A DNA stretch of 63,508 nt, the filler included. It is 6 parts of 6 records of this genome, joined end to end, with 100 filler letters (N's around TTAATTAATTAA, not from the genome) between each part and the next. Parts side by side here need not be neighbours in the genome. Positions count along the whole stretch, not along the records: positions 32,777 to 43,793 come from DRR378314_50; 5 more parts are not named here. One strand, 5' to 3'. The notes beneath the pieces are model-generated. The model had not been told where the DNA came from and made no database searches. It was given only the letters and a program-made list of their open reading frames with translations. Position numbers and translations under genes: made by a program. Positions 24,911-46,675 of this stretch are shown one piece after another. Position 1 is the first letter of the stretch. Each line of letters opens with the position of its first letter.

Positions 24911-25010
24911 NNNNNNNNNNNNNNNNNNNNNNNNNNNNNNNNNNNNNNNNNNNNTTAATTAATTAANNNNNNNNNNNNNNNNNNNNNNNNNNNNNNNNNN
25001 NNNNNNNNNN
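24911..25010. other. Artificial contig linker
   Basis: N44-TTAATTAATTAA-N44, giving stops in all six frames. Confidence 0.99.
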
Positions 25011-32776: not shown

Positions 32777-32792
32777 TTGCAAGTTCAGACAT
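32777..32792 (-). CDS. First codons (MSELA) of a truncated downstream gene, possibly the ABC ATPase
   Basis: AAGGAG RBS followed by an ATG overlapping the end of the racemase gene; product is inferred only. Confidence 0.4.
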
Positions 32793-34272
32793 GTGTTGAA
32801 CTCCTTTCTGTATTGGAAAACGAATTTGCCCGCTGGGTCAAAGCCAAGGTCACGCATTTGCGTGCCAGAATATCTGTGGGATCCAACATGGGCGGTAGTC
32901 CTGAATTCGTTCCCGGGGCAATCAGAGGAAGCTCGGTGCAACCCAGGATGAGCACATCGGCACCACGTTCTGAGAGATGTTGGCAGGCAGCAAACAATTG
33001 TTCCCGACAGTGGCCTTCGGTATGCCCGGCTTTCACCCCCTCGTCGCCGTAGATGGCGTCCATGACCTGTGCCTGGTAGTCGGGTTCCGGTGTCATCAGC
33101 TTAAGTCCAACCGCTTCGGCAGATTTGTGATATAGGCGGCTTTGCACAGTTCCATTTGTGGCAAGTAATCCGATTTTTGAGGCGCCAGGATAAGTATCTT
33201 GAATAGTTGCGATGGTTTCTGACAGCATGCTGACGATCAGGATATCCACATGCCGCTGGATCCTGTCCAAATAGGCATGCGCAGTGTTGCACGGGATCGC
33301 AATAATGTTTGCTCCTGCCCGCTCAAGTTTCTTGCAAGTAGCATACAGTGCCACAGTAGGATCTTTTCCATCCCCTGAAAGATTTTCTGTACGGTCGGGG
33401 ATTTGCGGATTCTGCTCTACCACCACCTTGATGTGGTCCTGGTCGCATTGTGCGTGTGTATTTTGCACAATCCGGGAAACAAAATCGACAGTTGCTGCGG
33501 GGCCAACGCCGCCAACCACTCCAACCTTGAAAGGCATGGTTCCACCACCACGGGAAACCCCAGCAGCATATTCAGCAAAGATCTGATTGCAATTCAGGAC
33601 GCGGAAACTGTGTTCTTCAAACAGGGAGCTCATTTGAGCCGGAATATCCGTAAAACCGGATAGGATAACATCTGCGCCTCTGGACATCAGATGCGTACAG
33701 GCATTGATAATCGCAACTTGTGCTTCCGGAGAAGAGTGCCCGGACTTCAATCCTTCAGGCCCGTATATCGCCTGCACCAGCGCTTTTTCGTGTGCCTGTT
33801 CAGGGTACAAAATTTGGTGGTCCGGTGCGAGCAGCCGGTCGAGGTATCCTGTCTTGCGCACGAACGGAGAGGTCAACACACCGACACTCATGGGAACTTG
33901 TCTTGAAAGGTAGTCGCCAATGGCCTCTCCAATGCCAATAATTCGCAATCCCACTTCGGGAATGATTTCGTCCAGAAAGGTCTGTGAAAGGAAACAAGGC
34001 ACTAAAGCGAGATCACGCGCGTCCAGTTCCATTTGACGTGCCATTTCATAGACGTAGAGCTTTCGGCTGGTAGCGGCGTATTGCGTGTCAAAAGGCTTAA
34101 CAGCTTCTTGAAAAGGATGTTGTACGAAACTGATGTCGATGTGTTGCCCGTCGGAAGTGTCTGGTGTTGCGCGGATGATCCTTTGCAGGATATCCGCGCC
34201 GGCGATGACTCCTAGTCCACCAATCAGGCCCAATTTTGGCTGGGAGGCTTTTACGGATTGGCTAACTGACAT
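32785..34272 (-). CDS. Asp/Glu racemase family protein with two tandem racemase units
   Basis: Unit 1: GLIGGLG, PCFLS, GFTDIP. Unit 2: GVVGGVGP, PCNTAH, GCTELP. Confidence 0.9.
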   Translation of the reverse strand: MSVSQSVKASQPKLGLIGGLGVIAGADILQRIIRATPDTSDGQHIDISFVQHPFQEAVKPFDTQYAATSRKLYVYEMARQMELDARDLALVPCFLSQTFLDEIIPEVGLRIIGIGEAIGDYLSRQVPMSVGVLTSPFVRKTGYLDRLLAPDHQILYPEQAHEKALVQAIYGPEGLKSGHSSPEAQVAIINACTHLMSRGADVILSGFTDIPAQMSSLFEEHSFRVLNCNQIFAEYAAGVSRGGGTMPFKVGVVGGVGPAATVDFVSRIVQNTHAQCDQDHIKVVVEQNPQIPDRTENLSGDGKDPTVALYATCKKLERAGANIIAIPCNTAHAYLDRIQRHVDILIVSMLSETIATIQDTYPGASKIGLLATNGTVQSRLYHKSAEAVGLKLMTPEPDYQAQVMDAIYGDEGVKAGHTEGHCREQLFAACQHLSERGADVLILGCTELPLIAPGTNSGLPPMLDPTDILARKCVTLALTQRANSFSNTERSSTHV

Positions 34273-34279
34273 TTTTTTC

Positions 34280-35389
34280 TCAGTGACCAGTCTTCAGTTT
34301 CTTTTCCAACCGCAGCGAATACCGTGACATCGAAAAGCAGAACATAAAGAAGACAAAGGCAACAAAGACATAAGCCTCAATCTCCAGTCCGAGCCAATTG
34401 GCGTCTTGGGTCGAATTGACGACAATAAGCAGAAAGTCAAAAAGACCGATGATCGACACCAGCGTTGTGTCCTTAAACGCTCCGATAAAGAGATTGACGA
34501 TCCCTGGCAGAACGGTTTTTAGAACCTGCGGCATGATCACCAAGCGGATCTTTTGGAAATAACCCAACCCCATGGCGTCGGCGGCCTCATATTGGCCAGC
34601 GGGTATTGCTTGTAGTCCTCCACGGATCACCTCAGCCATATAAGCAGCAGAAAACAGCACCAGCCCGATGGTCACGCGCAAAACGTTGTCGATATCCAAC
34701 CCGGGAGGCAGGACAAAAGGAAGCATAAATTGGGCCATAAACAGGATGGTGATCAGTGGGACTGCCCGGACACCTTCGATGAAGCAGATACAGACGAAAC
34801 GTAATATCGGCAGTTTTGATACTCTACCCAGTGCGAATAGTATGCCCAACGGAAGCGAAAGAACGATCCCGATTGTGGCCAGGAAGACCGTAAGGAACAG
34901 GCCGCCCATGTCGCTGCTTGGCACCTCTCCCAAGGTTATCCCCCCAAAGAAAAGGTCAAAAGCGATCAGAGGATATCCGAAAATCATTGCCCGAACGGCA
35001 ATACTACGCTGTTTCTTTTGGCCAAACAGAATAAAGCCGAGCCCAACTATATAAAGCGCCGTGCCAAGGTTGATCCGCCAGCGCTCATCCGGATCATAAA
35101 ATCCATAAATTATCTGTCCGAAACGCCGCACGATCATTGCCCAGCAGGCCCCGTCTCCTTTTTCTCGGCATTCAGCTGCGCTGCCAGCATCAAAAACAGC
35201 TGAGAAAAGGGCCCAATCCAGAAAGCGCGGGAGCAAGACCGCGGCAATGGCAATGATCGCAAGGCTGGCAATCGAATCGTACCAAGTGCTGAAGAACCAG
35301 CGGCGCAGCCAGTGTATCTCCTGATTCTCCGGCGGCGGCAGCGCTGGTGCGTCTTTAGTGCGGACCCAAGCAAAGTTCAAATCACTCAT
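34280..35389 (-). CDS. Polar amino acid ABC permease (AapM/BztC-like)
   Basis: Motifs GACW, IEGVRAVPLI, AYMAEVIRGGLQ and GQYEAA. Confidence 0.9.
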   Translation of the reverse strand: MSDLNFAWVRTKDAPALPPPENQEIHWLRRWFFSTWYDSIASLAIIAIAAVLLPRFLDWALFSAVFDAGSAAECREKGDGACWAMIVRRFGQIIYGFYDPDERWRINLGTALYIVGLGFILFGQKKQRSIAVRAMIFGYPLIAFDLFFGGITLGEVPSSDMGGLFLTVFLATIGIVLSLPLGILFALGRVSKLPILRFVCICFIEGVRAVPLITILFMAQFMLPFVLPPGLDIDNVLRVTIGLVLFSAAYMAEVIRGGLQAIPAGQYEAADAMGLGYFQKIRLVIMPQVLKTVLPGIVNLFIGAFKDTTLVSIIGLFDFLLIVVNSTQDANWLGLEIEAYVFVAFVFFMFCFSMSRYSLRLEKKLKTGH

Positions 35390-35392
35390 GGT

Positions 35393-36580
35393 TCAGCGCT
35401 CCATCAGGGCCATACGGCGGTTGTAGATGTTCATCAGGAGTGAAATGGTCAGCGAAATAGTCAGATAAACAGCCATTGTCAGTAGAATTACTTCCACGGA
35501 TTGACCGGTTAGATTCAGGGTAGAGCCTACGAAGACATTAACGAGTTCCGGATAACCCACTGCAATCGCAAGTGATGAATTCTTGACCACGTTGAGATAG
35601 TGGTTGGTGACGGGAGGAATAATCACTCGCATCGCTTGGGGCACTACTATCTTGCTGGTGATACGGCGCGGTTTGAGCCCTAACGCCTGCGCAGCTTCAA
35701 TCTGCCCCTTGCTTACTGCCATGATCCCCGCACGGACATTTTCGGCAATAAAGGCTGCAGCATAAAGCGAAAGCGCGATCCAAAGGGCAAATAGCGACCC
35801 GATTACCTCGATGCCACCTGAAAAGTTGAAGCGCCCAGCTTCAGGGATATCCCAAGTAGTCTTAATACCACCTACGATCCAAATAAGAGCGAAGATCACT
35901 ACAGCAGCGGCAACTGATGCCATGAAAATAGGAAAATCCTGCCCAGTTCGCGCTTTTTTTACTTTAGCAAATACCCACAGCCCAGCAATCGCGGCGGTGG
36001 AAATCCACAACGCGACCAAAAGAAGCCAGCCTTGCCCGCCAAAGTCCGCGAACGGCAGGTTCACACCCCTGTTGTGGATATAGAGTACATCCATCCCAAA
36101 CGGATTAAGAGCAGTGATCTCAGCGCCCTCACGAACACTCGGCAACGCGATCCAGACACCAAAGAACCAAAACAAGATGTGCAGAAGGAGAGGAACATTT
36201 CGTTCGACCTCCACAAAGGCGCTTGCTACCGAGGAAACCAGCACATTGCCGGACATTCGCATCAAACCGAACATGAACCCCAGAACAGTCGCCAGAACAA
36301 TCGACATGGCGGACACCAGCAAGGTGTTCAGGATGCCTATCTTGAGCGCATCCAAATGCGTCGATGTTGCGAAATCGAACGGCAATAGCGAGAAAGAAAT
36401 ATCATACCCGGCGAGATTTCCAAGAAAGCCGAAGCCATACTGAATGCCAAGACGCTCCAGGTTTACGATTGCGTTTCCTGCCAGATAAAACAGGAGAAGT
36501 AGAACAATCACAACGACTAGGACTTGTGAGGAGATGGCCCGGACTCTCGAGTCGCGCCAAAGTATGGAAATACTGTTCAT
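35393..36580 (-). CDS. Polar amino acid ABC permease (AapQ/BztB-like)
   Basis: Motifs GILNTLLV, RNVPLLL, AENVRAGI, GQIEAA and KNSSLA. Confidence 0.9.
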   Translation of the reverse strand: MNSISILWRDSRVRAISSQVLVVVIVLLLLFYLAGNAIVNLERLGIQYGFGFLGNLAGYDISFSLLPFDFATSTHLDALKIGILNTLLVSAMSIVLATVLGFMFGLMRMSGNVLVSSVASAFVEVERNVPLLLHILFWFFGVWIALPSVREGAEITALNPFGMDVLYIHNRGVNLPFADFGGQGWLLLVALWISTAAIAGLWVFAKVKKARTGQDFPIFMASVAAAVVIFALIWIVGGIKTTWDIPEAGRFNFSGGIEVIGSLFALWIALSLYAAAFIAENVRAGIMAVSKGQIEAAQALGLKPRRITSKIVVPQAMRVIIPPVTNHYLNVVKNSSLAIAVGYPELVNVFVGSTLNLTGQSVEVILLTMAVYLTISLTISLLMNIYNRRMALMER

Positions 36581-36596
36581 TTTATTCTCCTAGTCG

Positions 36597-36628
36597 GAAT
36601 GGGCGACCAGGAAGAGTGCCGCCCATTC
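36597..36628 (-). other. Intercistronic hairpin after the binding-protein gene
   Basis: GAATGGGCG...CGCCCATTC inverted repeat; likely mRNA-stabilising or attenuating. Confidence 0.55.
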
Positions 36629-36639
36629 TGTTCCTCAAA

Positions 36640-37635
36640 TCAACGGAACGGCGGCGCGTATTGCAGACCACCATTGGTATAGAGATTGTTCAAGCCACGG
36701 CTTAGGCCAAGCGGTTGCACATTGCGTTCCCACATCTCGCCATAATTTCCGACAGATTTGATCGCCTTATGTGCCCAATCCGCCTCAAGGCCCAATGCGG
36801 AGCCAATATCGCCTTCCACACCGAGCAGACGGCGGACTTCAGGATTGGTTGATGTCGATGCGATCTCGTCCACGTTTTCCTGGGTGATGCCGAACTCTTC
36901 CGCTGCTATGAGCGCATTGCGCACCCAACGGGCAACATCACCCCATTGATCGTCGCCCTGTCGAACATATGGTGCCAGCGGCTCTTTCGAAATGATTTCC
37001 GGCAAAACCATGTGATCCGCAGGTGTGTCAAATGTGGTCATAGCAGCAGCGACTGCGCTCTGGTCACCGGTGAACACATCGCAAGCACCGTCAACGTAGC
37101 CTTTTCTTGCGTCAGAGTTTGAGCCGAAAGACACCGATTTGAAATCTAGGCCGTTGGCACGGAAGTAATCTGCGAGAGTTTGCTCGGTGGAGGACGCAGT
37201 GGCCAAGCAAATAGAAGCACCGCTCAGGTCGTTAACACTTTTCACGCCTAGACTGGAACGGACGATGAAACCTTGACCATCGTAATACATCGTACCGATG
37301 TAATCGACTGCCTGCGTCGTATCGCGCATCACCGACCAGGTAGTGTTCCGCGAGACGATGTCTACCTCGCCTGATTGAAGGATTGTGAACCGATTCTTGG
37401 CGCTGACCGGAGTGTATTCAACCTTCGAAGCATCACCCAGCACTGCTGCGGCCACGGCACCGCAGTAGTCGACGTCAAAACCTTTCCAGGTGCCAGCGTC
37501 ATCAGTTGCCGAAAACCCCGGAAAGCCACTGTTTATGGCGCATTTCAAAGTACCATTGGCCTGAACGTTCTCAAGGGTGCCGGCACCCGCCGCGCCTGCG
37601 GCTATGACAGCAATTGCTGCAAACAAGTATTTCAT
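36640..37635 (-). CDS. Amino acid ABC substrate-binding protein (AapJ/BztA-like)
   Basis: Signal peptide plus GFDVDYC, SRNTTW, YYDGQG, ISKEPL and VGNYGE. Confidence 0.92.
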   Translation of the reverse strand: MKYLFAAIAVIAAGAAGAGTLENVQANGTLKCAINSGFPGFSATDDAGTWKGFDVDYCGAVAAAVLGDASKVEYTPVSAKNRFTILQSGEVDIVSRNTTWSVMRDTTQAVDYIGTMYYDGQGFIVRSSLGVKSVNDLSGASICLATASSTEQTLADYFRANGLDFKSVSFGSNSDARKGYVDGACDVFTGDQSAVAAAMTTFDTPADHMVLPEIISKEPLAPYVRQGDDQWGDVARWVRNALIAAEEFGITQENVDEIASTSTNPEVRRLLGVEGDIGSALGLEADWAHKAIKSVGNYGEMWERNVQPLGLSRGLNNLYTNGGLQYAPPFR

Positions 37636-37651
37636 GTTTTCCTCCTTGGAT

Positions 37652-38728
37652 TTAGTTTTGCCGCTTTGCTACGGCGTTAAGAATATGATCGTGAGGCAAG
37701 GCGTAGACCGTTCTCCCCTCAAAGCCTGTCGTGGTTTCGGCTGTGCAAAGAGAGTCGAGAATTGCTTCTTCTGTGGCTTCGACGGCGGCATGGAACAATG
37801 GGTCCATCTTGCGCGCTGGAATTGAAGAAATCCCCACAGACGGTTCTTCCGACAAAACGTCAATTATGTTTCCCGTGGAAAACGCGATGGCAAAATCACC
37901 GCTGCCGCTATTAGCCATGGCACCGGTCCGTCCTAACCCCAATACTGCCCGCCGACTGAGAGCGTTGCATTGCTGTGGTAGCAGTGGTGCATCCGTGGCG
38001 ATAATAATGACGATGGACCCATCTTCACCGGGCAACACTCTTTTCCGCTCAGGTATTGGCACCATTTTGTGCGATATTTCGCGGCCCAGATGGATACCGT
38101 CCACTACAAGGTTTCGCCTATCCCCGAAATTGGACTGCGCCAGAACTCCAAGCGTGTAGGCTTGCCCTGCCACCTCTATTTGGCGCGACGAGGTGCCAAT
38201 GCCGGACTTGAAATCGTAGGTGCACATTCCGGTGCCCCCGCCGACGCATCCCTCCTCAACGGGACCCCGCTTAGCGGCTTGAATCACTTGCGCGGCATGT
38301 TCAGGAAGGATAGCCCCCGACATCGGGTCACTGATCCATCCATCCCAGGTTTCACCAACCACGTGATGGGTATAACCATGAGCCGCAGTGTCCGGGCAGA
38401 TGGCATTTAACCCTTGCACCAGAGCGCCAACCCCAAAGTAGGAAGTTAGCAGGATTGGCCCGTTTACAAGGCCACTCTCTTGCAACCAGTCCCGGCCAAT
38501 AACCTGTCCGTAGCCGTTCAGAACATGTGAGCCGCCAAATCTGGCTTTCAGCCACAGATCATCGGGTGGGCAATGAAGAATAGCGGTCGCGCCTGTGCAG
38601 ATACCGCCATCCTTAAGGGTAATATGACCAACTGATACGCCGGGAACATCCGTGATGGCATTGTTAACTCCTGGCGGCAGGAAACCTGGTGCAACTCCCA
38701 AGTCACGAATTCGAATTGCCGATGGCAT
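37652..38728 (-). CDS. DmpA/P1 (S58) family aminopeptidase
   Basis: NAITDVPGV, EEGCVGGGTGM, G|SIVIIIATDAP autoproteolysis site, SGDFAIAFST. Confidence 0.9.
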   Translation of the reverse strand: MPSAIRIRDLGVAPGFLPPGVNNAITDVPGVSVGHITLKDGGICTGATAILHCPPDDLWLKARFGGSHVLNGYGQVIGRDWLQESGLVNGPILLTSYFGVGALVQGLNAICPDTAAHGYTHHVVGETWDGWISDPMSGAILPEHAAQVIQAAKRGPVEEGCVGGGTGMCTYDFKSGIGTSSRQIEVAGQAYTLGVLAQSNFGDRRNLVVDGIHLGREISHKMVPIPERKRVLPGEDGSIVIIIATDAPLLPQQCNALSRRAVLGLGRTGAMANSGSGDFAIAFSTGNIIDVLSEEPSVGISSIPARKMDPLFHAAVEATEEAILDSLCTAETTTGFEGRTVYALPHDHILNAVAKRQN

Positions 38729-38795
38729 CAGTTCCTACCCTCTCACTTTGCGCATGTGGTAAGCAAGGCTACGCAGAGGGTAATCGCCGCGTCCA

Positions 38796-38830
38796 ATTCT
38801 GATTTGGATTTCGCTATTCCAATATAGAAT
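38796..38830. promoter_or_regulatory. Tandem LysR-type boxes upstream of the dmpA-like operon
   Basis: Perfect ATTC-N7-GAAT (38816-38830, T-N11-A) plus degenerate ATTC-N7-GATT (38796-38810). Confidence 0.6.
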
Positions 38831-38842
38831 GACTAAACAAGA

Positions 38843-39751
38843 TCAGCCAACTAAAGATGAATCTAAGTTCCCCCAAATACGTTGCACCAGCCGGCTTTCT
38901 ACTTCTTTCAACCCATAAACCCTGACTTCAAGCTGTTCGAACCAAGCCTCTGACCCGGCAAGCACCAAATTACCGGTTTCCAATTCAGACTGCACTGAAG
39001 AATACGGCAGCCAAGCAATACCTTGCCCCATAAGCACACAGTTTTTTAAAACCTCGACTGTGGGGCTTTCAGCAATCGTCCGGCATTGTCCTGCATCAAA
39101 GTTATTCCGACGGAAAATCATGTCTTCGACTCGTGCCAGAAACCCGTCACGGGAATATCTAAGAAGCCGGACATCGTCAGGTTTTCCAGAAGCGAGGATC
39201 GAGGGCGGCCCATTTGAATATGCAAGAGTGACCGGCACGAACATCTCTGCTGCGAGGACCCGAGAATGGAACTTGCTCTTGTCGTACAGGGAGGGCAGCG
39301 ATGGATGAGAATATTGAAGAACTAGATCCACTTCCCTGTCCCCAAGTGCTTGAACCATCGTGTAAAAGTTTTGTGTTTTTAGACTAAAGCTGAAGTCACC
39401 GCAGGTGTCTTTAAGTTCTGCGAGCCACCGAGGAGCAAACAGCATCAGTAGTGTCGTCGCTCCTAGAATCCGCAGTTCGACTTCTCTGGAACTGTAAGAA
39501 GTACGCAACCGACCCCGCTCGGAGATCATCGCATTCAGTGTGGTTTGAGCTATTTCGCGGAATTCCGTGCCTGCTGGTGTCAGGACAGCAGGGAAAGTAC
39601 GCCGGTCGATCAATTCAGTACCTAACCAGTTTTCCAACGACTTGATGCGTTTGCTGAATGCTGACTGGGTCATGTTTCTTTGAGCTGCCGATACCGAAAA
39701 GTTACCGTTATTTGCCAGTACCATAAAGTCCTCAAGCCAAGACAGTTCCAT
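38843..39751 (-). CDS. LysR family transcriptional regulator
   Basis: MELSWLEDF...NFSVSAAQRNMTQSAFSKRIKSLE wHTH; resembles the HypT/YjiE subgroup. Confidence 0.9.
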   Translation of the reverse strand: MELSWLEDFMVLANNGNFSVSAAQRNMTQSAFSKRIKSLENWLGTELIDRRTFPAVLTPAGTEFREIAQTTLNAMISERGRLRTSYSSREVELRILGATTLLMLFAPRWLAELKDTCGDFSFSLKTQNFYTMVQALGDREVDLVLQYSHPSLPSLYDKSKFHSRVLAAEMFVPVTLAYSNGPPSILASGKPDDVRLLRYSRDGFLARVEDMIFRRNNFDAGQCRTIAESPTVEVLKNCVLMGQGIAWLPYSSVQSELETGNLVLAGSEAWFEQLEVRVYGLKEVESRLVQRIWGNLDSSLVG

Positions 39752-40292
39752 CAGCGCCACCAATTTATCTCATTCCTTTGCACCATACATTGATGGGCAC
39801 CGATAGACAGTCGTCGGCCAACGGTTTTGCTGCAAAGTTTGCGACATGTGTAGACGCCCAAAACCCCCGAAAATCCGCCATTTCCTTCAACAAACTGAAA
39901 AGAGCTTGGCGCCAAAAAAACTGGCGCAGATCGCACTCGAAGATCAAAAAGGTACACGCACTGCATTCATTAGATCACTTTCTGTGTCCGTAACACACTG
40001 TTTTTCAACAGAATGGGGCAGAGTTTGCTCATTCTCCGCACCCACGAAAAACTGAAGCCTGACGCCGAAAGGTGACGCTGAGATTGTCGGAATTGCGGAC
40101 AGTTTTCCGCAACGCCGAAAGTCGAGTTCGCGCCCAATTCAGTCATTAGAATAAGCGATTCAAAAGGGGCAAATTCAAGTCCCTGAGTTTGAGCCGATTT
40201 TACGAATCTTGAATATGTGCCATTCTCAACTTTGGCGATACCAGTCAAACTTGGATTTAGACTTGGTGCCTGTGGCCTGGGAGGAGCCAGTT

Positions 40293-41693
40293 ATGAACTT
40301 GAGACCTGACCCAACTTTTCACGCAACTCCGAAACTCGCTATGGAAGCGCCTGCGGAAACGCTGGCCTTTACGTTGATGCTGAGCCCTGACGGTTCCGAG
40401 CCTGATGGCCTGGCCGTCATAGATGTTGATCCGAAATCCGAGACGTACAGCCAGATCGTCCACAAGCTTATGATGCCCAACACGGGGGACGAGTTTCATC
40501 ATTTTGGCTGGAACGCGTGTTCTTCTGCGCTCTCACCCTTGACCGGACACGCGTTTTTGGAACGGCGGTACCTCATCATACCGGGGATCCGGTCCTCGCG
40601 CATCTACGTGATTGACGTAAAGGAACCTCTTAAGGCAAAAATTCACAAGATCATCGAACCGGAAGAGGTTCTGGCAAAAACGGGTTATTCCCGCCCACAC
40701 ACAATCCACTGCGGTCCCGAAGGGATTTATGTTTCGACGCTCGGAGGCGGCGGTGCGGACGGCACGGATGGTCCTCCGGGTATATTCATCATGGATTGTG
40801 AAACCTTTGAGATTTTAGGCCGCTATGAAATGGACCGAGGTGAACAAGATAAACACTACGACTTCTGGTGGAATCTCCCACGCGATTACATGGTAAGCTC
40901 GGAATGGGGGCTGCCACCGCAGTTCGAAAACGGGATTGTGGCTGAGGACTTGTTGTCCAACAAATATGGTCACAAGATCCATTTCTGGAACCTGCGCGAG
41001 CGCCGCAACGTCCAAACCATCGATCTGGGCGAAAACCACCAGATGGCTTTAGAAATCCGACCCGCTCATGATCCGGCAAAGGATTATGGCTTCTGCGGCG
41101 TCGTCGTGGACACCACAAACCTACAAGGTGCGATTTTCACGTGGTGGCGGAAAGATGACGGAACCTTCGAGGCGAAGAAAACCATCACGATTGATCCGCG
41201 ACCAGAGAAGGCCGAGAACCTTCCGCCTCTGCTGCAGGGATTTGAGGCCGTACCTCCATTGGTGACCGATATCGACCTGAGTTTGGACGACAAGTACCTC
41301 TACGTCGCCTGCTGGGGTCAGGGTGAAATGCATCAGTACGATGTGTCCGACCCGATGAACCCCAAGCTGACCGGCAAGGTCGAGCTTGGCGGGATCGCGC
41401 GCGGAGCAAAACATCCGAACGGCAAGAGTTTCGCCTACGGCCCCCAGATGGTCGAGATCAGCCGGGACGGCAAACGGGTTTACTGGACCAACTCGCTGTA
41501 TTCGACGTGGGATGATCAATTTTACCCTGATGATGAGGGCGGACAAATGGTTATGGCCAATGTCGGGGAAAACGGCGGTCTGGAGCTGGACCAGGATTTC
41601 TATGTCGAGTTCCCCAAAGGCTATCGAAGCCACCAGATCCGCTTGGAAGGCGGAGACTGCTCAACCGACAGCTTCTGTTACCCGTCGGTCTGA
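40293..41693 (+). CDS. 56-kDa selenium-binding protein family (SELENBP1 / methanethiol oxidase-like)
   Basis: Motifs DEFHHFGWNACSS, PHTIHC, YDFWW, SSEWG, GPQMVEIS, TNSLYSTWDDQFYP and GGDCSTD; GGAGGAG RBS; no signal peptide. Confidence 0.92.
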   Translation: MNLRPDPTFHATPKLAMEAPAETLAFTLMLSPDGSEPDGLAVIDVDPKSETYSQIVHKLMMPNTGDEFHHFGWNACSSALSPLTGHAFLERRYLIIPGIRSSRIYVIDVKEPLKAKIHKIIEPEEVLAKTGYSRPHTIHCGPEGIYVSTLGGGGADGTDGPPGIFIMDCETFEILGRYEMDRGEQDKHYDFWWNLPRDYMVSSEWGLPPQFENGIVAEDLLSNKYGHKIHFWNLRERRNVQTIDLGENHQMALEIRPAHDPAKDYGFCGVVVDTTNLQGAIFTWWRKDDGTFEAKKTITIDPRPEKAENLPPLLQGFEAVPPLVTDIDLSLDDKYLYVACWGQGEMHQYDVSDPMNPKLTGKVELGGIARGAKHPNGKSFAYGPQMVEISRDGKRVYWTNSLYSTWDDQFYPDDEGGQMVMANVGENGGLELDQDFYVEFPKGYRSHQIRLEGGDCSTDSFCYPSV

Positions 41694-41696
41694 CGT

Positions 41697-42365
41697 GTGG
41701 AAGGAATAGACACGGCAACTGCCCTTTGGTGGGCTGTTGTCGCCTCGGGCATTTATCACGGGGTCAATCCGGGTATGGGTTGGCCCCTGGCAGTGTCTGC
41801 GGCGCTGATGGACAAAAGCCCGTACAGCCTGTTCAAAGCGTTGATCGCGCTGGCGGTCGGGCATCTGGTTGCGATGGGTGCCATTCTTTTTCCCTTTACC
41901 GCGCTGCTTTTTCTGGCCGAATGGCAGCGTGAAATTCAGATTGGCGCGGCATTTCTTGTGATCGGGCTTGGCGTCTATCTTTTGTTCAACCGCCGCCATC
42001 CACGATTTCTTGCGCGCGTACCACCATCGCGGCTTGCGCTTTGGTCGTTCCTTGCGGCGATGGCGCATGGTGCGGGCCTGATGTTGGTTCCAATCTATCT
42101 TGGGATCTGTCGTACGATCACCACTGACGCAGGCCATGCGGCGGCCTCCAATCTGATGACTGGCAACGCCCAAATCGCTGTTGGTGTCGCCTTGGCTCAC
42201 ACCTTGGCCATGACAATCTCAGGTGGTTTGCTTGCGTTCGGTGTTTACCAATGGCTGGGCCTTAAGTTCCTCTCAAGGAGTTGGTTCAACCTGGACATAC
42301 TTTGGGCACTGAGCTTGATTCTTGTGGGATCGATTTCGTTGCTGTTCGTTCATCTGGCGGGCTAA
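41697..42365 (+). CDS. Uncharacterised membrane protein co-transcribed with the SBP56 gene
   Basis: About 6 TM segments with His-containing motifs HGVNPGMGW, GH, AHGAG and AHT; starts 3 nt after the SBP56 stop. Confidence 0.8.
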   Translation: MEGIDTATALWWAVVASGIYHGVNPGMGWPLAVSAALMDKSPYSLFKALIALAVGHLVAMGAILFPFTALLFLAEWQREIQIGAAFLVIGLGVYLLFNRRHPRFLARVPPSRLALWSFLAAMAHGAGLMLVPIYLGICRTITTDAGHAAASNLMTGNAQIAVGVALAHTLAMTISGGLLAFGVYQWLGLKFLSRSWFNLDILWALSLILVGSISLLFVHLAG

Positions 42366-42502
42366 TTGGAATGCAGGGCCGAGTAGGCCGCAGAGCAATC
42401 GTTCAGCTCACACACCTGCGAACAGTTGCTTTGTCCGCTCTTTGGATTTCCGTCCGTCTTCCAGCTTCGCTGGCGCAGCGAATATTTTGTGTGGATGTCT
42501 CC

Positions 42503-42737
42503 TGCATAGCAAGGCATTTTTTGAGCTTGATGTGAGCGATTGTCAGATGCGGTCTTGCGTCCGGCCTGTTTGCGCGGCGCATACGACCGCTGGCCCTGAT
42601 GGTTTCCGCTACCTAAGTCCCAAACTTCTTTAGCGGACAACATAGTGTCCCAGACATTCGACGGGGTGTCTCAGCTAACGGGCTGACATTGCTCCATCAT
42701 ATCAATGGTCTTGCGTCTCTGATGTTCCTTTTGGCTT
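42503..42737 (-). ncRNA. Putative bridge/seekRNA-encoding 3' non-coding region
   Basis: About 240 nt downstream of the transposase gene; folds by eye into two stem/internal-loop modules. Confidence 0.6.
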
Positions 42738-43757
42738 TTATGCTGCGTGAGGCCGATACCTTTCGTTGCGGGTCATAACCGCCCAGATGATACGGGCAGT
42801 TTTGTTGGCCATCGCGACGGTGACCACGCGCGGGGACTTTCGTTCTCGCAACGACATCTCCCACGGATCAACGCGGTCTGGATTGATCTTCATCTGGTTG
42901 AACCGGGCGGTCATGCCAGTCACTAGAAGGCGCCTGAGGTATCGATCTCCCATCTTGGAGATGCGCCCGAGGGGTTCTTTGCCGCCGCTTGATCGGTTGA
43001 TCGGCGTCAACCCCAGCCAGGCGGCAAACTCTCGTCCATTGCGGAACTGATGCCCGTCGCCAGGGGTTGCTACAATTGCCGAAGCTGTGACTGGACCGAC
43101 CCCGGGTATGGTCCTCAGCAACATAATCTTTGGGTCTCTGCGACCTTCAAGCAGAATGCGTTTATCGTACCAAAGAATGCGCAAGTGCAGAGCAACCATC
43201 TGGTTGCACAGGTTTGTCAAAACTTCGATTGCGACTTCAGGAATGCTCGGGCGATCTCCGTCCAGCACCGCCTTTGCAAATTTCACGGCACTGCCGATCC
43301 CTTGAGCAATCACGATACCAAACTCCCTCAGCAGGCCGCGCAACATGTTGCTGAGCTGGGTCCTTTGCCGCACGACCAGATCCCGCGCACGTTGGAGGAA
43401 CAGGACGCCCTGCTGCTGCTCGGTCTTGATCGCGACAAAGCGCATCGTCGGACGCGTGACAGCTTCACAGATCGCTTCTGCATCGATGGCGTCAGTCTAT
43501 CCGCGTTTGACGTAGGCTTTCACATACATTGCAGGCATCAGCTGGACTTCTTGGCCCAACTTCTGGGATTGCCGCGCCCAATGGTGGCTCGATCCGCAGG
43601 CCTCCCTTCCAATGAGACATGGCTCAAGGTTCTCGAAAAACTTCAAAAGCTGTGCACGCCTGAGTGACTTGTTGAACGCAACGGTCCTGTCCGCTTTGAT
43701 CCCGCGCACCTGAGGGATGTTCTTGGCCAGATCTAGGCCGACTGTTGTAACCTGCAT
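42738..43757 (-). pseudogene. IS110 transposase/recombinase with an in-frame TAG at 43497-43499
   Basis: The two ORF-track fragments share one frame: GLDLAK...EAC...KRG*TDAIDAEAICEA...IPGVGP...AWLGLTP..SSGGK; 340 codons in total. Confidence 0.9.
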
Positions 43758-43793
43758 TGGGTGGCTCCTTTCCTAGCAGTGATAGACAACTGC

Positions 43794-43893
43794 NNNNNNN
43801 NNNNNNNNNNNNNNNNNNNNNNNNNNNNNNNNNNNNNTTAATTAATTAANNNNNNNNNNNNNNNNNNNNNNNNNNNNNNNNNNNNNNNNNNNN
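43794..43893. other. Artificial contig linker
   Basis: N44-TTAATTAATTAA-N44. Confidence 0.99.
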
Positions 43894-44134
43894 TTTTTTT
43901 GCTGCCTGTGCTTAGCCGCCTCGCGCGTACTACTGTATATCATGTGCGAGCTGGAGATCGTTGGCCAATGCTGTATCGGCGACGTCCAGCCGTCACTGCG
44001 CGCTCTGGCGGCAGGTCCGTGCCGGCGCACCCTTACTGCACGATGCTGCCCAATGTGGCCTAGTACTTCATATTCACTCCGCGAATATTTCTTCGCGGTT
44101 CTCGTCTTTTTTCTTTTCGCCCACGCACACGCAG

Positions 44135-46675
44135 TATGCATTCATGGAGGAAATGCTGGGAAACGTGCCGGGTGCGCGCCGGGTGTTCGAAAGGTGCGTA
44201 GTCGGTCGCGCAGCGAATACCGCACCGGAAAAGGAGAGGGGTGGAAATAGGAATATTCCGCGCATCGTCGCGCAGTGTCTTTACAATGGGCGTGTGCTTC
44301 CGCCTTCCGTGAGCATCGTTGACAGCGTGTGCGATCGACGTCGCCGCCTCAAGGGAGGCCCAGGCTCCCCGTCGTGCGCGCGAGGCGTGTACTTGGCTAG
44401 TCGTGATCTTGAGCCCGGTTACCGCACCTTTCCTGAACCCCGAAAATACTCCGATTGGAGCACACGACGTCGCTCAAGGCTTCCGAAGATCACCCTGGTA
44501 CCAGAAAACAGTCTGTTGTACTATTGTTCCTGTACATGCGTTCACATGGATATTTCTCCACTCACTATCAGCACCTCCGTACTCCCGCGACTGCTGTGGC
44601 GATGGTCGTGCGCCCACCGCCACCGCGTTATCTACAGGTGGATGCAATGGCATCCGAATGAGAAAGCCTGGATGACGTACATCAACATGGAGGTTCGATA
44701 CAAAGAGTTTGACCGGGCACGAAACATCTATGAGCGCTTTGTGGAAAGTCATAATACTCCGGCCGCGTGGCTGAAGTTTGCCAAGTTCTGCGAAAAGAGG
44801 TACGTGGTGCTCTATCGGAGTGCACTGTGAGGTGAATAGTGATTTTGAGAAGCATGAAGAGTCCAAGGGACACGTACGGGTTTGATTTGCAGCTCTGCAA
44901 CTTTTTCTTTTCGGAGTGATTGCGGCGCAGGGACGTAGCAGAAGCTTTTTCGTAGTGCCGTCTCATGTGCTCTTCCTGCTTTCTTATCGTCAGCGCTAGT
45001 GCAATCTGATGTAGTAGAGCAAGAGGTACGATGTAGCTTTCCGATTGATCAAAATGACGCGGGGGCATGTTCGACCGCGGCAGTTGATGTTGAACATGAG
45101 GATTTTGGTGCAGTTTCCTGCTGCCTTTCGGTACTCTCCTGTTGCTTCCCTTTCTCGCTGCTCCTGTTTTATTGTTCGGGCCCACGTCGGCGTTTTGGTG
45201 CATCGACACATACAGTGATTTCACTGAGTATTTTCTCACACTACATAGTCTCTGTATGCCGAAATTGACGCTCGCTATTTCTTGTTTGCCGATTTTTTTA
45301 TTTCTTGCTGCGATGCAGTCGCTCCTCCGGTCGCACTGAGCAAACGCGATCGGTCTTTGAGCGCGCTATGGAGTCGCTGGGCGAAGAAGCGCTGACACCT
45401 GCATTCCTGATTGAGTTCGCCAGCTTTGAAGAGCGTGAGCGCGAGTTTGACCGCGCGCGCGTCATTTACAAGTACGCGTTGGACAATCTACCGAAGAACG
45501 ATGCAGAGGAGGTGCACAGAGCGTACATGTCATTTGAGAAGAAGCACGGCGATCGCGAGGGCATCGAAGACGCCGTGCTGGCCAAGCGCCGCTTCCAGTA
45601 CGAAGAGGAGCTGAAGCAGAACCCGCGGAACTACGACGTGTGGTTCGACTACGTGCGCCTCGAGGAAGAAGACGGAGAGCACAGTCGCATTCGCGAAGTG
45701 TACGAGCGAGCCATCTCGAATGTTCCGCTCAGTAGCGAAAAGCGCCATTGGCGAAGATACATTTACCTCTGGATCATGTACGCCGTGTTCGAAGAGCTCG
45801 ACGCCGACGATGTCGATCGCGCGCGCGAGGTGTACAAGGCGTGTGTAGGAATTGTCCCGCACAAAAATTTCACTTTTGCCAAGATCTGGCTTCTCTTCGC
45901 GAGCTTTGAAATCCGCCAGAAAAACCTCAAGGCAGCTCGGCTGCTCCTGGGCCGGGCGATCGGCATGTGTCCGAAAGACCGTCTTTTCCGTGGGTACATT
46001 GAGCTCGAGCTGCAACTTGGAGAGATCGACCGCGTGCGCAAAATCTACGAAAAGTATATCGAGTGCTTCCCTGCAAACTGTGCAGCGTGGACCAAATTTG
46101 CCGAGCTTGAGGTCTCGCTCGGAGAGGATGACCGTGCGCGCGCCATTTACGAGCTGGCGGTGTCGCAGCCGCAGCTCGACATGCCCGAACTACTCTGGAA
46201 GAACTACGTCGACTTTGAGATCGCGTGCGGCGCGTACGACCGCACACGCTCGCTTTACGAGCGTTTGCTCGAGAAAACGCAGCATGTCAAAGTCTGGCTC
46301 AGCTTCGCGCGCTTCGAGGATGAAGAAGCAGGCGACCACGAGCGCGCGCGCGCCACATTCGAGCGGGCTTACAAGGCGTTCTCGCAGGATGCGGCGACGA
46401 AAGAGGAGCGCCTCATGGTCCTCGAGGCGTGGCGGGATGCCGAGGTCAACGCAGGAGACGCCGACATGGCGGCAGAGGTCAACAAAAAGATGCCGCGCAA
46501 GGTCAAGAAGCGTCGCGCTGTCACTGGCGACGACGGCTCCGTGCAAGGTTTCGAGGAGATTGTGGATTACATATTCCCCGACGATGCCTCGACGAAGCCC
46601 AACCTCAAGCTGCTGGAAATGGCACACAGGTGGAAGCAGCAACAAGGAGGAATGTCTGCCGATGCTGCCGAGTAG
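44135..46675 (+). CDS. CRNKL1: Crooked-neck/Clf1 spliceosomal HAT-repeat protein, 5'-truncated; exons 44135-44193, 44638-44799, 45319-46675
   Basis: YAFMEEMLGN, WRRYIYLWI, FTFAKIW, LDMPELLWK, DYIFPDD and KLLEMAHRWK; two GT-AG phase-2 introns restore a continuous frame. Confidence 0.92.

Follow-up and report, generated by a model that had tools for sequence, protein, structure and literature searches.

A probable guide RNA gene in the 3' non-coding region of an IS1111-type insertion sequence of roseobacter-group bacteria

Which molecule selects the insertion site of a mobile element is the question raised by an insertion sequence in the window, the stretch of 63,508 nucleotides of DNA analysed here, in which a folded non-coding region behind the transposase gene holds short segments resembling the DNA on either side of the element. 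The earlier note, made from the letters of the window, had proposed an IS1111-type seekRNA/bridge-RNA region at this place, and the transposase, the element ends and the 3' non-coding region fit such an assignment, with the fold covarying among relatives and the two loops covarying with their flanks. Non-coding DNA of 250 nt separates the transposase stop (42738) from the right end of the element (42488) and is very probably the gene of such a guide RNA (seekRNA/bridge RNA). The window is a chain of separate contigs with five runs of N around the linker TTAATTAATTAA, and the element sits on the piece 32777-43793, which shares 99.4% identity over 1494 nt with a Ruegeria contig (locus L005).

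42488..43793, minus strand: IS1111-type insertion sequence, 1306 of about 1355 bp present, delimited by homology with 84 related loci
42738..43757, minus strand: IS110-family DEDD transposase pseudogene, 339 codons, in-frame TAG at codon 87 (43499-43497)
42491..42502, minus strand: right subterminal inverted repeat, GGAGACATCCAC
42488..42490, minus strand: right terminal extension of 3 bp, ACA, the last bases of the element, where collapsed contigs stop
42466..42487, minus strand: right target half, made up of AAATATTCG (42487-42479) leading into a hairpin of a repeat family, TTCGCTG-CGC-CAGCGAA (42482-42466)

Homology to the 84 related loci begins at the contig edge and stops at 42488; the first 49 nt of the element are absent because the contig stops at 43793, and the complete element is present in L005. 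The transposase carries an N-terminal PF01548 domain (E = 7.9e-12) and a C-terminal PF02371 domain (E = 8.8e-26) and scores 307 bits against the NCBIfam model NF033542, 'IS110 family RNA-guided transposase' (cutoff 140). Its length of 339 codons and the motif GLTPINRSSG agree with PMC11187229, where IS1111 transposases are described as 330-350 aa long and as bearing the motif GL-P----S(t)G. A PDB sequence search gave similarity to IS621 and ISCro4 in the C-terminal domain only (E ~1e-8). The longer of the two non-coding regions lies 3' of the transposase gene, as fits the IS1111 group, with 250 nt downstream (42737-42488) versus 85 nt upstream (36 in the window and 49 in L005). Judged by its sequence, the element belongs to the IS1111 group within the IS110 family and lies on the minus strand. 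Relatives are numerous, a blastn search against plasmids returning 422 records, the best of them from roseobacter-group genera, and a scan of genome contigs yielding 80 loci with a protein identity of 62-100%; no copy of the element was found in G001, the closest genome searched.

Codon 87, the nonsense codon of this copy, is Lys in relatives, and KRGKSDAID is among the commonest strings where the frame of the relative is correctly read. L005 carries the same insertion with two base differences in the element, the same TAG and an identical non-coding region, and its genome contains no second copy of the element. With the TAG common to two genomes and no second copy in the sister genome, the transposase of this copy is probably dead and the copy immobile, and, by the same token, its RNA gene is most likely a relic.

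The ends of the element were placed by comparison with relatives, in which the homology runs 49 nt beyond the contig edge of the window, starting at the conserved GATGGGGTGGATGGCTCC, and ceases on the right at ..GGAGCCATCCACACA, corresponding to window position 42488; repeat-collapsed contigs of about 1350 bp stop at the same right end (L008, L014, L038, L052, L054 and L065). The family consensus has subterminal repeats of 12 bp, GTGGATGGCTCC on the left and GGAGCCATCCAC on the right, a length within the IS1111 range of about 11-13 bp; in this copy the right repeat GGAGACATCCAC and the left repeat GTGGATGGTTCC, taken from L005, are complementary at 10 of 12 positions. The rule given for IS1111 elements in PMC11187229, by which the left end extends 7 bp and the right end 3 bp beyond the repeats, agrees with the extensions N+GATGGG and ACA observed here, a 7 (or 6)/3 pattern without target duplication. 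From the subterminal repeats and the 7/3 rule, the element therefore is N-GATGGG...ACA of about 1355 bp, a boundary good to about 1 nt because the comparators have diverged. The earlier note had placed ATATTCG immediately outside the element end, which does not hold: family alignment and collapsed contigs put the right end at 42488 (..CCACACA) and not at 42486, so that ATATTCG begins at flank position 3. Six relatives (L015, L022, L031, L058, L067 and L069) lose the right end partway through the subterminal repeat (..GCAGGAGCCAATGGTATGGACCCCGCCGCC..), and these six broken ends seem to have a common foreign sequence, perhaps that of another element targeting this end.

The RNA of the minus strand can be divided into two modules.

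42542..42714, minus strand: structured 3' non-coding region, seekRNA/bridge-RNA gene as modelled from alignment A1, RNAalifold and pair counts, with modelled ends
42612..42675, minus strand: putative target-binding module, helices P3 and P4 and hairpin P5 around an internal loop
42675-42670/42617-42612, minus strand: P3, GCUGAG/CUUAGG
42665-42663/42621-42619, minus strand: P4, CCC/GGG
42650-42647/42638-42635, minus strand: P5 hairpin, GGAC/GUCC
42652..42660, minus strand: loop 1, putative right-target guide CGAAUGUCU, complementary to the top strand at right-flank positions 1-9
42625..42634, minus strand: loop 2, putative left-target guide GCUAAAGAAG, in the sense of the left flank and ending in the first bases of the element, AG
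42549..42609, minus strand: second module, candidate donor-binding loop, closing stem GCGG/CCGC (42609-42606/42552-42549)
42595-42592/42566-42563, minus strand: P6, second module
42590-42587/42577-42574, minus strand: P7, second module, covarying
42605-42596, minus strand: single strand of the second module, AAACCAUCAG
42562-42553, minus strand: single strand of the second module, GGACGCAAGA

The stem, internal loop and hairpin described beforehand are present, with five pairs in P3 as written and G.G as its outermost pair, and the internal-loop strands include CGAAUGU (42660-42654) and GCUAAAG (42634-42628); equally, the second module, described as GCGG..GGCC..GCGG/CCGC..GGCC..CCGC, was recovered at 42609-42549. 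Taken alone, the window sequence provides weak evidence for a fold (z-score -2.65), and the structure was assessed in homologues. The non-coding alignment comprises 68 of 85 sequences, those with the right end found; alignment A1 derived from it contains 59 distinct sequences, after duplicates (L005, L068 and L070) and six sequences with insertions or truncation (L033, L034, L042, L064, L079 and L083) had been dropped. RNAalifold on A1 retains the fold in these 59 sequences with seven helices and 30 pairs, 98.6% of the cells being paired, while the paired fraction falls to 20-42% in slid controls. Changes on both sides of a pair occur in 74 cells versus 26 +/- 7.6 in shuffles, and none of 500 shuffles reaches 74. 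Compensatory changes are found in four helices, P3, P4, P5 and P7, with CG replaced by UA in P4 in 19 sequences, AU by GC in P5 in 29 and GC by AU in P7 of the second module in 15; those in P3, P4 and P5 thus define the first module as stem, internal loop and hairpin.

A covariance model built from A1 scores 179 bits at 42542..42714, matches no other site in the window and has matches in 50 of 151 sampled genomes from the family of the L005 genome. Rfam covariance models applied to 42300-43900 (E <= 10) gave no relevant match, the sole match being a chance snoRNA (E = 2.9). The A1 model also matches the second module alone (model positions ~102-164) away from full-length matches, among others at G120:C14:89307-89366, G048:C6:109441-109501, G048:C13:25413-25473 and G019:C1:2444357-2444401; these may be other IS1111 clades having that module, or solo remnants.

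The two internal-loop strands are the variable parts of an otherwise conserved RNA, and their resemblance to the flanks is the central observation. The complementarity of CGAAUGU to ATATTCG (42485-42479) consists, as had been claimed, of six Watson-Crick pairs and one G-T pair; the role proposed for this segment as a target guide was upheld, its extent as a heptamer was not, the in-register loop 1 being the 9-nt CGAAUGUCU, which forms seven Watson-Crick pairs, one G-T pair and one mismatch with the flank AAATATTCG (42487-42479). Covariation of the loop strands with the flanks was examined in 56 loci with both flanks, mostly in roseobacter-group records and with the window left out; 55 loci remained when L079 was later left out because its left end is ambiguous. 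In these 55-56 elements the 5' strand follows the right flank, read as its reverse complement, and the 3' strand follows the left flank extended by the first two bases of the element. Loop 1 matches the reverse complement of right-flank positions 1-9 with 7.23/9 for cognate and 6.70 for non-cognate combinations (56 loci), and loop 2 (9 nt) matches the last eight left-flank bases plus G with 6.66/9 versus 4.97 (56 loci). For neither loop do any of 20,000 shuffles attain the observed match, counts which overstate independence as the related sequences have common ancestry; the outcome is unchanged if flanks are shuffled only inside each of three subfamilies, or if every distinct guide pair is represented by a single locus (n=33). 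The reservation that a 7-nt match might arise by chance is thus valid for the window alone, while in the family comparison the match is not due to chance.

Position by position, bases 1-8 of loop 1 match in 36-53 of 55 loci and position 9, the last base, which faces flank position 1, in 21; the last six bases of loop 2 match in 44-55 of 55 loci and its first three in 21-29. Loop 1 hardly discriminates because CATTCG is common to most targets. Clear switches of loop 1 are seen in L004 (CGAACGGCA vs GGAACGGCA), L012 (CGAAAGTCA vs CGAAAGTCC), L105 and L055 (GCTTTGTCC vs GCTCTGTCC); L055 has a second comparison, AGTGCAG vs AGCACAG, in which the two differences are both wobble-compatible, and L049 and L074 have GCTTTGCTG, the same as the flank. 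In 54 of 55 loci the base that precedes GATGG recurs as the penultimate base of loop 2 (42626). A held-out set of 30 new loci, eight with both ends found by pattern and six after removal of two duplicates, repeated the effect weakly (969/20,000 and 126/20,000); in two of the six (L112 and L113) loop 1 was clipped to 8 nt by the added alignment, with scores of 1 and 3.

The matches of the window itself are imperfect, loop 1 being identical at 7/9 and loop 2 at 6/9 positions. Only one of 54 foreign loop-1 sequences fits the right flank of the window equally well. The left flank lies outside the contig and was taken from the 99.4% identical locus L005, where it ends in ..GCGGCCCTAAGG followed by the first bases of the element, AG; only two of 54 foreign left flanks fit loop 2 equally well, and at the six positions which match best in the family loop 2 agrees with the L005 flank at five. 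A GCTAAAG-like heptamer had been predicted for this missing flank, and a similar sequence was found, although not an exact one, GCUAAAGAAG matching CCCTAAGG+AG at 6/10 positions plus one wobble. Neither of the two outcomes named beforehand as speaking against guide function, a left flank devoid of a GCTAAAG-like sequence and a lack of guide-target covariation, occurred.

The sequence into which the elements insert is, judged from the flanks, a hairpin-containing intergenic repeat of roseobacter-group genomes, with the consensus ..gatgctgcg.tg..gcccc.CAaAGC to the left and GGcCATTCGCTGC... to the right of the insertion point. The right half of the repeat forms a hairpin, TTCGCTG/CAGCGAA in the window. 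Uninterrupted copies, the empty sites by which the reading was to be checked, were found in several places. One in G002 reads ..CCCGCTTTGC joined to GGTCATTCGCTGC.., and three loci in the L005 genome read ..CAGCCCGCTTTGC joined to GGTCATTCGCTGC.., while occupied sites of that type read ..CGCTTTGC-TG-ATGGGG...CACACA-GGTCATTCG... In the uninterrupted repeats the left half joins GG.. directly, without N or a duplicated base; by comparison with the occupied sites, the N before GATGG therefore belongs to the element and nothing is duplicated. Furthermore, the left flank of L005 was searched in 61 congeneric genomes, of which 12 match, and in one congener (L131) the orthologous intergenic region is uninterrupted, reading ..GGCCCGTCAAAGG and then AGACAATCGCTGCGCGAGCGAAGCTGGAAGACGGACGG.. 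with the junction between GTCAAAGG and AGACAATCG. The ideal reading of loop 1 of the window is AGACATTCG, and loop 1 fits the L131 site at 8/9 positions, better than the present flank AAATATTCG (7/9); loop 2 GCUAAAGAAG matches GTCAAAGG+AG of L131 at 7/10 positions plus one wobble. The right half in L131 starts with AG, as does the element, and loop 2 ends with it, and therefore the two guides overlap on the core; an overlap of the target matches is likewise described for published seekRNAs in the available text of PMC11187229.

These observations can be integrated into a model in which the RNA would fold into two modules, the P3/P4 stem and the P5 hairpin holding the internal loop open. Loop 1 CGAAUGUCU would pair with the top strand immediately to the right of the insertion point and loop 2 GCUAAAGAAG with the bottom strand immediately to its left, extending two bases into the future start of the element. 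In the likely original target, AG would also form the first two bases of the right half-site, with the guides overlapping on this core dinucleotide. The second module would probably present the joined ends of the circle in a like manner, with CCAUC set against GATGG and ACACA-N-GA copying the right end and the start of the left end, and insertion would take place between ..CAAAGC and GGnCATTCGCTGC.. without target duplication. The fold with its covariation, the covariation of guides and flanks and the empty sites are shown by the sequences; production of the RNA, its binding by the transposase, a donor function of the second module and the precise place of crossover are inferred.

It is quite improbable that the structure constitutes another cis-acting element, such as a DNA site for transposase binding, a terminator or a regulator of transposase expression, with the protein picking the target and the loop matches reflecting a shared consensus. 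Such a reading would be in line with the occurrence of GGnCATTCGCTGC in most targets, so that any loop with CGAAUG scores high, as seen in the non-cognate mean of 6.70/9 for loop 1, and with the outcome of the search for expression signals. The promoter scan of the region yielded no promoter-like site, and the three terminator-like sites include none at the end of the RNA on its strand, one of them being the target hairpin. Among 23 sequencing runs only X1 contains at least half of the stretch, and no X1 contig covers the region (X22, X23, X1 and X3 compared); in two metatranscriptomes the contigs over 42492-42796 come from relatives, are more than 10% different and show neither transcription, strand nor ends. 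However, where loop positions vary they change together with the flanks, and they do so inside subfamilies too (0/20,000), wholly different guides are found in L055 and L105, and published IS1111 elements have exactly this arrangement, with an RNA that, according to PMC11187229, is essential and co-purifies with the transposase.

Common descent at the DNA level would be an explanation if recombination had brought part of the target repeat into the non-coding region; the resemblance would then have nothing to do with guide function. The repeat family does occur in the same genomes and some relatives have palindromic insertions inside the second module, yet each of the two matches spans only 6-9 nt, they run in opposite senses, their order is swapped, with the complement of the right flank coming first, the copy of the left flank second and a conserved covarying hairpin between them, and loop 2 continues into the first two bases of the element, which is not expected of a captured repeat; such a capture appears exceedingly unlikely. 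There is equally a very slim chance, suggested by analogy, that the RNA has become a trans-acting small regulator in the host independently of transposition, like Ssr9, which in Pseudomonas putida adjoins ISPpu9 and also exists as solo copies, as described in the accessible text of PMC12288879. The dead transposase beside a non-coding region identical in the window and L005 would be compatible with this scenario, as would the matches confined to the second module (model positions 102-164) in several genomes. However, the window and L005 differ by only two bases over the whole element, so the identity of the non-coding region is uninformative on selection, and the partial matches often lie at contig ends.

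Donor binding by the second module is partly supported by its sequence. CCAUC in this module corresponds, as reverse complement, to GATGG of the left end and, in the wider family form, AA(A/C)CCAUCA to (T)GATGG(G/T); ACACA-N-GA, on the opposite side of the P6/P7 hairpin from it, repeats the right end followed by the initial bases of the left end. These end matches mirror the geometry of the first module and fit a remark in PMC11208160 on possible donor binding by IS1111 RNAs in a multi-loop. In a mutual-information scan, the base before GATGG (N) ranks top. It agrees with the base in ACACA-N-GA (42555) in 37 of 55 loci (T-T in 28, C-C in 7 and A-A in 2), and for T, C and A all three N positions agree; N switches inside subfamilies (L025/L035; L051/L061/L068; L005; L055), and L105 and L107 are two further A-A cases. 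In the other 18 of 55 loci (L001-L030 type) the flank has G and ACACA-N-GA has C, though loop 2 has G. As for the fold, the closing stem GCGG/CCGC is invariant in A1 and without covariation, and RNAalifold prefers the helices P1 and P2, in which GCGG and CCAUCA are paired with upstream segments, burying CCAUCA; P1/P2 and GCGG/CCGC are equally conserved, with covariation in neither.

A tentative and rather doubtful extension is that the roseobacter clade represents a natural record of a two-loop IS1111 bridge RNA, not restricted to target seeking, in which the 3' module would read the right-end/left-end circle junction and N would be a programmable core written three times, in the DNA end, the left-target guide and the donor strand. 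If so, the exception with G in the flank and C in the RNA would point to an undescribed rule of core recognition. As a separate observation, palindromic insertions of ~37-41 nt (CTGCCCGGCAG-type) flank the GGCC helix of the second module, on one side or on both, in L042, L064, L079 and L083 (also L033 and L034); those of L079 and L083 seem complementary to one another within each locus, as if adding RNA arms.

The closest known systems are ISEc11, ISKpn4, ISPst6, ISPa11 and ISXne4, which according to Siddiquee et al. (2024, PMC11187229) have, as here, a DEDD transposase of ~339 aa that contains GL-P----SG, ends extended by 7 bp and 3 bp beyond the subterminal repeats and a long 3' non-coding region. 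Their seekRNAs equally contain two short target matches in a folded RNA, overlapping in the target, with the complement of the top strand 5' of the match to the bottom strand, and are naturally redirected by changing just these segments (PMC11187229, in its accessible part). The clade described here is set apart from them, going by the descriptions, by its occurrence in the roseobacter group and by its target, an intergenic hairpin repeat; in addition, its guide RNA is a prediction from sequence and 33-34 distinct guide pairs occur within one clade. Judged at sequence level, the features that define an IS1111-family member with a seekRNA are all found, the donor-binding loop being a candidate.

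The core is CT in IS621 and N-G with a variable first base here, the transposase resembles the IS621 and ISCro4 proteins in its C-terminal domain only, and the donor loop here is a candidate. In the IS621 structures the left-target guide reportedly continues into the first bases of the donor, which is termed 'handshake', and the same feature is seen here. The bridge RNA of IS621 (Durrant et al. 2024, PMC11208160; structures 8WT6 and others), as far as the available text describes it, also has a target internal loop in which each loop strand reads one half-site on opposite DNA strands with overlap at the core, and a second module, to which the candidate module here, which could read the donor junction in the same geometry, would correspond; the IS621 RNA is encoded in the left end upstream of the gene, here in the right end (PMC11208160). 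ISPpu9 of Pseudomonas putida is a further IS110-family element with a small-RNA gene 3' of the transposase gene, and it inserts into repetitive extragenic palindromes, a likeness drawn from the description in the accessible part of PMC12288879.

Nothing specific on this element in roseobacters was found in the literature as far as its text was available. The probable guide RNA adds a clear case, though an ordinary one, to a system that was described in 2024; the mechanism being already known, the finding mainly adds a well-documented natural example. Its value lies in one clade in which 33-34 distinct guide pairs address variants of a single intergenic repeat and for which empty sites are in hand, a series from which the important guide positions (here ~8 nt for the right flank and ~6 nt for the left) can be learned and one bearing on whether IS1111 RNAs read donor ends, while the general picture is unchanged.

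The same piece of the window as the element carries a gene for an SBP56 selenium-binding protein (40209-41693, plus strand; E = 1e-175), followed 3' by a membrane-like ORF of 222 aa without Pfam match (41697-42365, plus strand), the end of which is ~120 nt from the insertion. Joins of the window pieces at runs of N lie at 24955, 32721, 43838, 51890 and 58428, and the GC content changes stepwise between pieces, for instance with 0.43 at 24-34 kb versus 0.54-0.62 elsewhere. On the contig adjoining the bacterial one, an uninterrupted protein of 456 aa (45305-46675, plus strand) has Syf1/CRNKL1 and PRP39 HAT repeats and is, by its sequence, of the eukaryotic pre-mRNA splicing factor type; with such a contig beside a bacterial one, the assembly is therefore a mix of eukaryotic and bacterial DNA.
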